Assembly: GCA_030835745.1 (NCBI GenBank)
Contig: JAUROA010000027.1
Span: 1 to 51,906 of the forward strand
From: Alphaproteobacteria bacterium
GTDB lineage: Bacteria; Pseudomonadota; Alphaproteobacteria; Rickettsiales; UBA1997
Reading direction: 5' to 3'
Length of the DNA stretch: 51,906 nt
A model generated the notes under the pieces. That model had not been told where the DNA came from, searched no databases, and saw only the letters and a list, made by a program, of their open reading frames with translations. How positions within the stretch are numbered: the first letter of the stretch is position 1; every line of letters begins with the position of its first letter. Below, in pieces: positions 7,029-38,880 of this stretch. Both the position numbers and the translations under genes were made by a program.

Positions 7029-7078
7029 GATAAATGGGGGTCAAAAAGATAAATGGGGATAAATGGGGTCAGACCCCA
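7029..7078. repeat. Three GATAAATGGGG copies ending in palindrome TGGGGTC-A-GACCCCA (REP-like)
   Basis: Copies at 7029-7039, 7048-7058 and 7058-7068; palindrome 7064-7078; between convergent genes. Confidence 0.85.
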
Positions 7079-7088
7079 AACTTCCTAA

Positions 7089-7472
7089 TTACTTTTTTAG
7101 CGATAATAGATTTTCGCTATTATTGTGAAGTTCGAATTTTGCCTGATTAAGCTCTTTTTTTATAAGGTTATTTTTTTCTTTTTCTTTAGTTAATTTTTTA
7201 TCGAGATTTTTAATATGTCTTTGACTAAAAAACTGATTATAATTTTTTACAATATTTCTTGGTATTGACATTAAAATTGATATTACGATTCCCAAAATAA
7301 AAAAGCTTATCATAATAACAAATATTTTAGCAGAAATAATATAAGGAATTGGCTCTAAATTTATATCGATATATTGATCATTATTAACAATAAAAACTGA
7401 TAAATATAGCAAAATAGCAAAAAAACTAAGCAGCTTTACAACTTTATAAAGTGATTTTATTATTGTGATCAT
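7089..7472 (-). CDS. LapA-domain (DUF1049-like) inner membrane protein
   Basis: Two TM segments separated by the F..NN..(I)DINL.P pattern, then a basic coiled coil. Confidence 0.65.
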   Translation of the reverse strand: MITIIKSLYKVVKLLSFFAILLYLSVFIVNNDQYIDINLEPIPYIISAKIFVIMISFFILGIVISILMSIPRNIVKNYNQFFSQRHIKNLDKKLTKEKEKNNLIKKELNQAKFELHNNSENLLSLKK

Positions 7473-7479
7473 TGTAATA

Positions 7480-8187
7480 TTATTGATATAAAATTTTATC
7501 TTCTAATCCAGCATTTTCAAAACCTTTTAATCTAAGTAAACAAGAATCGCATTTTTTGCATGATATTACCTTGTTATTCTTTATAATTGGATCATAGCAG
7601 CTATGAGTTAGTGAATAATCAACTCCTAAATTGATACCTTTTTTAATAATTTGAGATTTATCAAGATCTATCAATGGTGCATGAATTTTTATTTTTTGAT
7701 TATTTTGCGCACTATTTGCTGTTGCTAAATTTGCCATTTTAGCAAATGACTCTATAAATTCTGGCCTGCAGTCTGGATAGCCACTATAATCAATAGCATT
7801 TGCACCTATAAAAATATCATAAGCTGAAATAATCTCGCAATATGCCAATGCATATGATAAGAAAATAGTATTTCTTGCCGGAACATATGTTATTGGTATA
7901 ATTTTATTATTTATTTCTTGGACATTATTATGCTTTGGAACTTTAATATCAGATGTTAAGGCAGAATTTCCAAAAATTTGAAGATTTATATTAATAATTT
8001 TGTGCTCTTGGACCTTATAAAATTTTGCAATATTACTAGCATTTTCCAGCTCATTCTTATGTCTTTGACCATAATCAAAACTTAATAAATAGCATTCATA
8101 ATTCAAGGAATTGGCAATTGCTAATATTGTTGTTGAATCAAGTCCACCACTAAATAAAATTACCGCCCTCTTTTTTATAATACTCAT
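7480..8187 (-). CDS. queC: 7-cyano-7-deazaguanine synthase
   Basis: SGGLDS, FDYGQRH, TYVPARN, YPDCR and the SCY..C..C..C zinc site. Confidence 0.98.
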   Translation of the reverse strand: MSIIKKRAVILFSGGLDSTTILAIANSLNYECYLLSFDYGQRHKNELENASNIAKFYKVQEHKIININLQIFGNSALTSDIKVPKHNNVQEINNKIIPITYVPARNTIFLSYALAYCEIISAYDIFIGANAIDYSGYPDCRPEFIESFAKMANLATANSAQNNQKIKIHAPLIDLDKSQIIKKGINLGVDYSLTHSCYDPIIKNNKVISCKKCDSCLLRLKGFENAGLEDKILYQ

Positions 8188-8190
8188 AAA

Positions 8191-9126
8191 CTAGCTTTTT
8201 CTAACTTTTCTAGGCAATGCAAAAATAGTCGACTCTTCAATACCTTGCATATTGGTAACATTAACCTCTTCCTTGATAATGTTTTTAATTCTTGCAATAA
8301 CATCTTGAACCAATATTTCAGGAGCTGAAGCCCCTGCAGTTAAACCAATATTTTTGACATTATCCAGCCATTTTATGTTAATATCGTTAGCATTGTTTAT
8401 TAAATATGAATCAAGACCACATTCCTGGCCCAAATCTCTTAATCTATTTGAATTTGAACTATTTTGCGCTCCTATAACTATTAAAATATCAGCAATTTTA
8501 GCCAAAGATCTAACAGCGTCTTGCCTATTTTGTGTAGCGTAACAAATATCTTTAGTAGCCATACCTGGCTTTAAAGTAGGAAATCTTTGCTCTAAAATTT
8601 TAACAATTTTCAAAGTATCATCGACACTTAATGTTGTTTGCGTAACATAGGCAATTTTTTCAGGATTTTTAACTGTAATATTTTTGGCATCTTCTTCATT
8701 TGTAACCAAAATGACATCTTTTTTAACCCTGCCACTTGTACCTTCAACTTCAGGATGACCCTTATGTCCAATTAATATAATTTCAAAATCTTGCTCTTCA
8801 TATTTCTTTGCTTCTCTGTGCACTTTACTTACCAAAGGGCATGTAGCATCTATAACATCAAGATTTTTATTAATTGCGTCCTGCTCAACTTTATCAGAAA
8901 CGCCATGCGCTGAAAAAATTGTAATTGCTTCTTTAGGAATTTGAGCTACATCATCAACGAATATTGCACCCTTTTTTTCAAGAGATTCAACAACATATTT
9001 ATTGTGAACAATTTCATGGCGAACATAGATAGGTGCTCCAAACTTTTCCAATGCCTTTTCAACTGTTTCAATTGCTCTTGTAACCCCTGCGCAAAATCCT
9101 CTTGGCTTTGCCAATATAATATTCAT
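8191..9126 (-). CDS. ispH: 4-hydroxy-3-methylbut-2-enyl diphosphate reductase
   Basis: PRGFCAGV, SAHG, DATCPLV, QTTLS, ICYATQNRQ, SSNS, TAGASAPE. Confidence 0.99.
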   Translation of the reverse strand: MNIILAKPRGFCAGVTRAIETVEKALEKFGAPIYVRHEIVHNKYVVESLEKKGAIFVDDVAQIPKEAITIFSAHGVSDKVEQDAINKNLDVIDATCPLVSKVHREAKKYEEQDFEIILIGHKGHPEVEGTSGRVKKDVILVTNEEDAKNITVKNPEKIAYVTQTTLSVDDTLKIVKILEQRFPTLKPGMATKDICYATQNRQDAVRSLAKIADILIVIGAQNSSNSNRLRDLGQECGLDSYLINNANDINIKWLDNVKNIGLTAGASAPEILVQDVIARIKNIIKEEVNVTNMQGIEESTIFALPRKVRKS

Positions 9127-9130
9127 TATG

Positions 9131-37003: not shown

Positions 37004-37004
37004 T

Positions 37005-37469
37005 TTATTTCCAATCAAGCGCCCCCCTTTTCCATTCATAAATAAAACCAATTGTTAAAACAGATAAGAAAACCATCATTGACCAAAAACCAAATTCACC
37101 TATTTCTCTTAATGAAATTGCCCAGGGAAATAAGAACGCCACCTCAAGATCAAAAATAATAAATAAAATTGCAACTAGATAAAATTGCACATCAAAATCA
37201 CTTCTAATGATGCCCCGTCCGTCAAATCCACATTCATATTGAGAATTTTTTTCATTGTCAGGTTTCATTTTATTGACAATAAATGGAATTGCCAAAACAA
37301 AAATCGATAACATTAATGCTATAATGCTAAAAATTAATATTGGTATATATTGTTGAGTTGAACTATCAAAAGCAAATAATTGCTGTGGATTGAAATCAAA
37401 AAAACTAACCTGTAACTGGTTGTTTATTTCACCACTTAAATTACTATTAGCCAAAGAATTATCTTGCAT
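37005..37469 (-). CDS. nuoA: NADH-quinone oxidoreductase subunit A
   Basis: [33 protein letters not shown]-terminal extension. Confidence 0.97.
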
Positions 37470-37542
37470 GTTTTTTTACATTAAAATTATACTTAACTAA
37501 GTTAATTTGTATTTAATTCAAAATCAATTATATTTTTTAATT

Positions 37543-38415
37543 ATGATAAACCATACTTATACTGCGTTAATTACTCCTTTTAAAGATAATAAAATTGACG
37601 AAGAATCCCTTAATAAGCTAATTGAATATCAAATTGAAGGTGGTGTTGACGGCATTGTTGCATGTGGCACAACTGGTGAATCCCCCACCCTATCTCACGA
37701 AGAACACAAAACCATGATCAAATTATGTGTCGAGATTGCCAATAAAAGAATTAAAGTTATGGCGGGAACTGGATCAAATTCAACCAGTGAAGCTATTATG
37801 ATGACAAATTATGCCAAAAAAATTGGTGCTGACTCATGCCTAATTGTTGCACCATATTATAATAAGCCAACAGCACAAGGAATATTTGAACATTTCAAAG
37901 AAATTAACAATATTGAGCTACCAATTATATTATACAATATTCCTGGCAGAAGCGTAATTAATATTAGCGATGATGAGATTGCTAAAATTGCTAAATTAAC
38001 AAATGTAATTGGTGTAAAAGATGCAACCTCAGATCTAGCAAGAATAGCCACTTTAAGAAAATTAATCACTAAAGAAAACTTTATGTATCTATCAGGAGAA
38101 GATATGACAGCTCTTGGATTTAATGCGATGGGGGGAAATGGCATTATCTCTGTTACTGCCAATATAGCTCCTAAATTAATTAAAAAACTACAAAATCTAT
38201 GCGCTAATTTCAAATATCAAGAAGCGCTAGAACTTCAAGATCAATTAACAATATTGCATCAAGCAATGTTTTTGGAAACCAACCCTATTCCAGTAAAATA
38301 TGCTGCCTCATATTTAGGTATCAGTTCCAATGAAATTAGATTACCTTTATGCAGCCCTACTAAAACCAATATCACCAAAATTAATGACATTATTGACAAA
38401 TTTAAATTAAGATAA
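37543..38415 (+). CDS. dapA: 4-hydroxy-tetrahydrodipicolinate synthase
   Basis: TALITPF, GTTGES, PYYNKP, YNIPGRS, GVKDAT, TNPIPVK. ATG 37543 is preferred. Confidence 0.98.
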   Translation: MINHTYTALITPFKDNKIDEESLNKLIEYQIEGGVDGIVACGTTGESPTLSHEEHKTMIKLCVEIANKRIKVMAGTGSNSTSEAIMMTNYAKKIGADSCLIVAPYYNKPTAQGIFEHFKEINNIELPIILYNIPGRSVINISDDEIAKIAKLTNVIGVKDATSDLARIATLRKLITKENFMYLSGEDMTALGFNAMGGNGIISVTANIAPKLIKKLQNLCANFKYQEALELQDQLTILHQAMFLETNPIPVKYAASYLGISSNEIRLPLCSPTKTNITKINDIIDKFKLR

Positions 38416-38461
38416 ATTTGGCTCTTATAAATTAATTGATGAATAATTTAGCTATTAATAC

Positions 38462-38490
38462 TTGTTAAAAACATATCATATAGTTATAAT
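38462..38490 (+). promoter_or_regulatory. Promoter of ssrA
   Basis: TTGTTA, 17-bp spacer, TATAAT just upstream of the tmRNA acceptor piece. Confidence 0.6.
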
Positions 38491-38496
38491 TATATT

Positions 38497-38880
38497 GTTT
38501 AGCAATAAACTATAGCGATAAACTTGATTTATAATAACCATTTGGACTCGGGGGCGGTACCCGACACCTCCACCATTACCAATAAATCTACAAGATATAT
38601 TTCTTTAATATCTTGCTAAATAAGGATGTGACATAAGAGGTTACATAAGGGGGATTACATAAGGGGGTGACATAGTTTCGACAGATGCTAAAAAAATTAA
38701 CTTTGCTCGGTTGAGATACTGCCGATTGTTATTTAACAATATCCGTTCAAAAACAATAAATGCAAATGATAACTTTGCAAATGATAATTTTGCGCCAGCT
38801 TATGCTGAAGAAGCCTTCGCATAAACTATAGTGATTTTATCGGGGTTTTCCGACCAACCTGTCAACAGAAATGGTCGGGC
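38497..38880 (+). ncRNA. ssrA: Permuted two-piece tmRNA (outer boundaries approximate)
   Basis: Acceptor piece ends TCGGG-GGCGGTA-CCCGA-CACCTCC-A-CCA (CCA ends 38575); 87-nt intervening segment; coding piece starts GGGGGTG (38663) and pairs the acceptor stem with a G3.U70 pair; tag 38762-38824 ANDNFANDNFAPAYAEEAFA*; CCTGTCAACAGAA pseudoknot-like 3' region. Confidence 0.95.
38620..38671 (+). repeat. Four degenerate 12-14-bp tandem copies spanning the tmRNA 5' processing site
   Basis: ATAAGGATGTGAC / ATAAGAGGTTAC / ATAAGGGGGATTAC / ATAAGGGGGTGAC. Confidence 0.8.

Follow-up and report, generated by a model that had tools for sequence, protein, structure and literature searches.

Introduction

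The closest described relative of the repeats treated here is the TIRtron, or TIRYT element, whose ends follow the consensus GGGGWSAS (Di Nocera, De Gregorio, Rocco 2013, PMC3733652). Its protein has been equated with TnpA-Y1 subclass 2.1, of which subclass 2.1.2 bears a Bac_DnaA_C domain (Quentin et al. 2018, PMC6006769), and also with RAYT group 1 (PMC5581495, via Quentin et al.); one survey recorded no REP-like partner for TIRYTs. In this study, short tandem arrays at four non-coding loci were analysed in a 51,906-nt stretch of alphaproteobacterial DNA (the window), which is contig C18 of an assembly of 1.13 Mb with 29% GC and 80% completeness. Two of the arrays lie at copies of the end of a predicted TIRYT element, and two adjoin the stable RNA genes ffs and ssrA. 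We propose that TIRYT makes the iterations at element tips (GGGGTCA) and that the arrays at ffs and ssrA probably arose off target, at host sequences resembling the tip, a reading to which we assign a probability of about 0.58.

Two further systems bear on this proposal. In E. coli, the amplification of BIMEs by TnpA-REP has been modelled (model B) as a nick, an extension, a second nick and a rejoining that adds a tandem unit (Ton-Hoang et al. 2012, PMC3333891). The Ssn GIY-YIG nucleases are associated with SRM/NTS palindromes (PMC11893778).

Throughout, G000 denotes the genome under study, G001 a sister genome that also carries the element, and G002 a TIRYT-negative genome, of which 264 kb of ~1.2 Mb served as a small, underpowered control. 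Other sequencing runs (X2, X3, X6, X7 and X8) were compared via Logan contigs. The gene content of the window is housekeeping, and near-identical DNA was seen in seawater, marine and estuary runs.

Results

A predicted TIRYT gene and its dispersed ends

The sole Y1_Tnp gene of G000 is located on a contig separate from the window (C28:13903-14904, minus strand). Its 333-aa product comprises a Y1_Tnp domain (PF01797, 57 bits) and a Bac_DnaA_C domain (PF08299, 42.6 bits, residues 232-298). His60, His62 and Tyr119 are invariant in 11/11 homologues, and alignment to the ISDra2 transposase suggests that Tyr119 is the catalytic tyrosine. The predicted structure matches TnpA-REP best (4ER8, E=1.8e-6), with DnaA domain IV further down the list, and a PDB sequence search returned weak IS200-type matches. 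The motif GGGGTC[A/T]GACCC flanks the gene on both sides, with one pair overlapping its last codons, and inverted GGGGWSAS ends are present on both sides. From its domains and ends, the gene is assigned to the TIRYTs, TnpA-Y1 subclass 2.1.2. A canonical REPtron (RAYT groups 2 and 3) was considered and rejected, as the flanks are GGGGTC[A/T]GACCC and not a GTAG REP and the NF047646 score (62.3 bits) falls below the cut-off of 80.

The flanking motif is dispersed across the genome. The top GC-rich 12-mer is GGGTCAGACCCC, and the palindrome GGGGTC[A/T]GACCCC occurs in 25 copies, compared with 0 in a reversed control. An association with Y1/RAYT genes had been envisaged in an earlier note made from the letters of the window. 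At least 10 palindromes are present in 8 of 121 family genomes, and 7 of these 8 carry the gene compared with 11 of the other 113, by a hand count in which kin are not independent. The seven carriers include G001, in which half of the gene lies at a contig end, and the match in G061 is weak. For the reverse transcriptase also envisaged there, no gene (PF00078) was found in the 80% complete genome.

A repeated sequence of another kind also carries the tip. Seven contig ends of G000 (C20, C24, C26, C35, C41, C44 and C57) are identical copies of one long terminus, which is also present in G001 (L481, L487 and L527). It contains an internal GGGGTCA, iterated in none of the copies, and probably represents an insertion sequence present in multiple copies that the assembly has collapsed.

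Element tips are iterated with a narrow upstream boundary

Distant relatives were collected by an alignment scan, whose best 80 of 587 hits were kept (78 loci); a single-protein scan of genome contigs found no relatives. At the 78 loci, the upstream end reads GGGGTCA, typically ~48 bases from the gene, and the downstream end reads TGACCCC. Of the 107 tips, 35 show local direct iteration over at least 8 bases, compared with 3/532 random flank positions. Distal motif sites are iterated in 12/268, and 10 of the 11 distal cases listed are GGGTCA sites. The same is observed within the two sister genomes, where palindrome loci are iterated in 7/19 (G000) and 17/42 (G001) compared with 28/964 and 18/1476 GC-rich controls. 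The units are 8-25 bases long and consist of outer flank with a partial tip. In 28 of the 30 distinct events in G000 and G001, the upstream boundary falls 8-14 bases before the G-run. The downstream boundary lies at -3 to +11 in all 30 events and extends up to +53 among the distant loci.

Compared with described systems, these loci exhibit both similarities and discrepancies. The Y1-HUH core joined to Bac_DnaA_C, the inverted GGGGWSAS ends on both sides, one overlapping the 3' end of the gene, and the moderately abundant dispersed end copies (singles, dimers and clusters) are shared with TIRtrons. In contrast, the available parts of the published account describe no short tip iteration, fixed upstream boundary or host-gene effect; Figure 9 and the supplements might show iterated ends. 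The main texts of PMC6006769 and PMC5581495 do not contain the word 'tandem'. Neither tip iterations nor such arrays at ffs or ssrA were found in the literature covered, which includes PMC5581495, PMC11893778 and 10.1101/2022.05.22.493013, each in the parts available, and few subscription papers. TnpA-REP has the same fold, and the BIME model fits the pattern observed here; it differs in that GTAG-tagged hairpin REPs are absent here and the units are 8-25 bp of flank and partial tip, not whole BIMEs. Ssn resembles the present case in that the nuclease is flanked by its own palindromic repeat and that, in relatives of G000, such repeats show arm iterations with a GGGGTGAC core. It differs in that a small GIY-YIG gene was not found here, and the nucleases of those relatives were assigned to Ssn by size, Pfam family and flanks only.

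In those relatives (L567-L571, L582, L187, L584 and L585, from G087, G103, G105, G124, G139 and G140), GGGGTGAC palindromes have given rise to perfect arrays of one arm with downstream sequence, with a period of 14-21. Small GIY-YIG genes flanked by such palindromes occur in G087 and G105. Footprints of this type may also be the work of another class of nuclease.

Loci 7029 and 25756 carry element-end copies

The array at 7025-7068 (periods 19 and 10) closes with the palindrome GGGGTCAGACCCC at 7065-7077. Together with an inner arm, this palindrome forms a TIRtron end copy at 7065..7089 on the + strand, which has the motif of the gene flanks, scores 38.8 bits against the end profile (of which it is a training member), has an orthologue in G001 and sits between two convergent genes. 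It is preceded at 7025..7064 (+ strand) by two stacked iterations of outer flank and partial tip. The longer iteration is common to G001 and the 10-bp iteration is specific to G000; as one iteration is shared and further ones were added separately in G000 and in G001, the process has acted repeatedly.

The array at 25756-25778 (period 12, 1.9 copies) lies at a degenerate end copy, GGGGTTCAAACCCC with an arm match, located at 25768..25800 on the + strand directly after a stop codon. Of 19 bases in its 3' flank, 17 are shared with the arm found at the 3' end of the TIRYT gene. The copy scores 24.4 bits against a profile built without it, and nothing in the reversed genome exceeds 8 bits. In G001 and G002, no end copy was seen downstream of the gene whose stop codon precedes the copy here. 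At 25756..25767 (+ strand), the palindrome core is repeated once more over 12 bp; the junction contains an additional G, and outer flank is absent. The cores of both loci are able to form short hairpins. The iterations at 7029 and 25756 are very probably TIRYT footprints at element copies.

The region 25754-25927 is polymorphic. A related X8 contig holds 118 other bases there, X3 contigs break across it, and in G001 its two sides are split between contigs that carry several kb of other DNA.

Arrays at ffs and ssrA

The gene for signal recognition particle (SRP) RNA, ffs, is located at 34779..34862 on the + strand (RF00169, 41.6 bits; Rfam span 34779-34867). The array has the 3' stem arm of the gene, GGGTCACTCTCAC, as its first copy, and the fold is preserved. 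The array (34850-34918, period 14, 4.9 copies, 100% identity) continues with four perfect extra copies of GGGGTCACTCTCAC at 34863..34918 (+ strand). Each extra copy opens with the full GGGGTCA tip, whereas the native gene has TGGGTCA. Read as a CTCTCAC flank followed by the tip, the extra copies have the commonest upstream boundary. The first event departs from the usual geometry; its unit begins at the G-run, and one G was added to convert TGGGTCA to GGGGTCA.

The gene for transfer-messenger RNA (tmRNA), ssrA, is of the permuted two-piece alphaproteobacterial type (38483..38915, + strand; Rfam and ARAGORN). The acceptor piece ends with CCA at 38575, an intervening segment occupies 38576-38662 (87 nt), and the coding piece starts with GGGGGTGAC at 38663. 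A decayed array of the 12-14-bp unit ATAA-GGGGGTGAC spans 38620..38674 on the + strand (4.2 copies, 81%), with three extra copies in the intervening segment, immediately upstream of the coding piece. It is absent from G001, in which the segment measures 13 nt. The boundaries of the latest event (-10/+2) are tip-like, and the unit is also readable as slippage with an ATA microhomology. The intervening segment of tmRNA is removed on maturation. The SRP stem uses the first copy of its array and the tmRNA acceptor stem the last copy of its own, so that both RNA folds are spared; both arrays lie outside the mature folds and are probably neutral.

The earlier note had reported four reiterations of 11-14 bp with a shared GGGGT core, two of them at stable RNA genes and of differing age, with the G-run as one arm of a stem. 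All four arrays, the two RNA genes and the contrast between the perfect ffs and the decayed ssrA array were confirmed; the units measure 10-19 bp. The true anchor is GGG(G)[AT][CG]A, with GGGGTCA as the tip. The stem holds in part, as a portion of the G-run at ffs is unpaired beside the terminal stem and pairing involves mainly UCACUCUCA. The half-sites that fit GGGGWSAS are GGGGTCAC at ffs and GGGGTGAC at ssrA. The sequence at both loci is native to the genes in relatives, and the match to the element is the 8-base half-site alone.

No second case of either array was found among the relatives parsed or the pattern matches listed. A single ffs copy is present in 29 relatives, and the ssrA G-run is iterated in 0/33 parsed loci of relatives (parsed loci: 33/53 for ssrA and 26/30 for ffs). 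Across 401 genomes of the order, the ssrA pattern matched in 25, with iteration judged by eye in this genome only; a loose ffs pattern matched in 122 genomes, and among the matches listed ffs is iterated in this genome only. When metagenomes were scanned with a pattern for ssrA genes iterated at the 5' end, at least 120 matches were obtained, mostly non-ssrA, and no ssrA-like row among them was iterated.

An assembly artefact was ruled out for ffs, ssrA and 25756 by contigs of other runs. Logan contigs enter the ffs array for exactly 30 bases and then stop, as expected of a k=31 loop; X2 and X3 show this from either side and X6 from the left. The copy number is not readable from these contigs, and those of X7 did not reach the array. 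One X3 contig spans the ssrA array with zero differences, and X2 and X6 bridge 25756 with no difference listed at that place. For 7029, support comes from the iterated orthologue in G001.

Two features of ssrA lie apart from the array. A 15-bp duplication at 38761-38793 in the tmRNA tag frame yields the peptide ANDNFANDNFAPAYAEEAFA, in which ANDNF is repeated. In relatives, the intervening segment holds long GC-rich palindromic inserts (L109 in G061, L114 in G131 and L108 in G010), and the segment therefore acts as a sink for repeat elements.

Half-sites and the duplication background

Genome-wide, 64 exact intergenic tandem duplications were found, compared with 15.3 +/- 3.5 in 20 dinucleotide shuffles. 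Ten of them have a G3/C3 run inside the repeat, compared with 0 in the shuffles. The claim of the earlier note that non-coding GGGGT is nearly always reiterated describes the + strand of the window and fails genome-wide, where 4/61 non-element loci are iterated. GGGGT alone was rejected as the determinant on the same count (p=0.12 against GC-rich 4-mer controls). For the half-site, 5/53 non-element GGG[AT][CG]A sites of G000 are iterated compared with 1/301 other G-runs (p=3e-4), and 3/51 remain without ffs and ssrA (p=0.01). In the part of G002 compared, neither half-sites (0/11) nor other G-runs (0/95) are iterated.

Three more intergenic arrays in G000 have a half-site and no palindrome: C19:39517 (L554), C29:10686 (L556) and C48:2399 (L552), with periods of 11, 10 and 12 and 3-4 copies. 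The unit at C19 is similar to the TIRYT end in its inner arm, and the GGGTC array on C48 adjoins a duplicated tRNA-Met end. In G001, three 14-bp iterations near the 16S rRNA 3' region (L541:6126-6170) close in the half-site GGGTCAGAC with no second arm, and their geometry resembles that of tip events.

Two repeats of G000 are of other composition. A perfect 13-bp array of ATATGTTTAGAAA (2.8 copies) at 14955-14990 of the window overlaps a start codon, has no G-run and belongs to the general duplication background. The sequence GTTTCACGTGAAAC, which resembles the parS motif, is present at several sites across the genome (8 strand counts).

Discussion

The mechanism proposed here follows the BIME model by analogy. 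TIRYT would use its HUH active site to nick the GGGGTCA tip or a position close to it, leaving a 5'-phosphotyrosine and a free 3'-OH. A host polymerase would extend the 3'-OH, and a second cut or a realignment approximately one helical turn upstream, followed by rejoining, would yield a further copy in head-to-tail arrangement, often with the site renewed. At ffs, a first event may have created the full GGGGTCA tip, and later rounds with the standard geometry may have expanded the array. The HUH enzyme suspected in the earlier note thus has a candidate in the Y1-HUH gene, whose end is copied at two of the four loci. For ffs and ssrA the evidence is suggestive, and off-target TIRYT action at these two genes stands at about even odds. 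More tentatively, and at somewhat less than even odds, TIRYT would be a sequence-directed micro-amplifier that acts on any GGG(G)[AT][CG]A half-site, also within essential RNA genes of the host, and produces iterative 10-14-bp head-to-tail copies that each renew the site.

Several observations weigh against the proposal. Nicking by any TIRYT is not reported in the literature found. The ffs and ssrA arrays are not end copies, as both have negative end-profile scores, and ssrA is uniterated in 10 other TIRYT-carrying genomes and ffs in 6. In three cases (the C19 array, the event at 25756 and the initial one at ffs) the repeat begins at the G-run without outer flank, unlike 28/30 tip events. Several motif definitions were tried, and a stricter motif, pooled and without the two discovery loci, gives a marginal excess (3/43, p=0.05). 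G001 shows no corresponding half-site excess (0/79 vs 2/462, a count in which the iterated half-site at L541:6154 was binned with the element). In G000, 53/64 intergenic duplications have no nearby G4 run. The motif scored in 1/22 lineage-specific duplications in aligned G000/G001 DNA, a survey that is blind to large insertions and in which neither the ffs nor the ssrA array was spanned by an alignment. Of 126 family genomes, 10 have triple GGGT[CG]A arrays, and 7 of these 10 lack a TIRYT hit; similar arrays in TIRYT-negative relatives lie at GIY-YIG-associated palindromes or in coding repeats.

The main alternative is a split origin, in which TIRYT makes the 7029 and 25756 iterations only, ffs and ssrA were extended by ordinary slippage in tolerant non-coding DNA, and their likeness to the tip is coincidental because stable RNA ends are G-rich. 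The large background without G-runs and the unreplicated half-site excess favour it, as do the 2.6 duplications per 10 kb in TIRYT-negative G002, the 3-base ATA microhomology of the ssrA unit, an intervening segment that varies from 2 to 195 nt among the parsed loci, and a 12-bp duplication beside the ssrA G-run of TIRYT-negative G060. Against it, five of the six iterated non-element G-run loci in G000 have GGG[AT][CG]A, compared with 53/354 overall, and each of the four extra ffs copies has the G needed for a complete GGGGTCA; 0/9 duplications in G002 touch a G-run, although this sample is small. We regard a split origin as less likely than the proposal, though it is the strongest competitor.

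Iteration might also proceed with no nick, if bound TIRYT, through its DnaA-like domain, or a self-folded palindrome stalled the fork and polymerase slippage copied the local sequence. The spread of the downstream boundary, which is not fixed, and the hairpins available to the 7029 and 25756 cores are consistent with this possibility, and the DnaA-like domain may target the fork (Quentin et al., PMC6006769). However, the 35/107 iterated tips belong to long inverted repeats ~1 kb apart and mostly lack a local palindrome. As isolated tips are iterated as often, slippage that depends on hairpins only is disfavoured, and a local hairpin, invoked in one of the two mechanisms suggested in the earlier note, is not required. 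The ffs and ssrA arrays fold as DNA no better than shuffles (z 0.00 and 0.41), and the HUH and Tyr residues are invariant; slippage without nicking is judged improbable. Still less probable is that the ffs and ssrA arrays are scars of an integrase or island, or of an Ssn-type GIY-YIG nuclease missing from the assembly. The GGGGTGAC palindromes that flank small GIY-YIG genes in relatives, their arrays, which extend 3' from the G-run as at ffs and 25756, and the C48 array beside the duplicated tRNA-Met end speak for such an agent. However, the only GIY-YIG frame found in G000 (80% complete) and G001 measures 560 aa and is probably UvrC, and the only further candidates are two integrase-family matches, presumably XerC/XerD. 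No repeated GGGGTGAC palindrome family appears among the top k-mers, and no island adjoins ffs or ssrA.

With TIRYT as the preferred agent, the arrays are largely explained by a known element family, which already bears the names TIRtron and TIRYT, although the earlier note knew of no named mechanism; no printed account of a spill-over onto genes for host RNAs was found. The TIRYTs form a large subclass of HUH enzymes, and the literature covered yielded no biochemistry for them. The iterations supply a substrate, the GGGGTCA tip, together with predicted boundaries, 8-14 bases upstream and from the G-run to +11 downstream, so that TIRYT chemistry becomes directly testable; an assay able to map the cuts is described in PMC8266576. 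If the off-target origin of the ffs and ssrA arrays is true, some bacterial short tandem repeats that are usually blamed on slippage would be enzyme-made and could arise at the edges of essential genes. If TIRYT is indeed a micro-amplifier, bacterial minisatellites would have a protein-directed source, and the boundaries of the iterations would map the points of cutting and rejoining.

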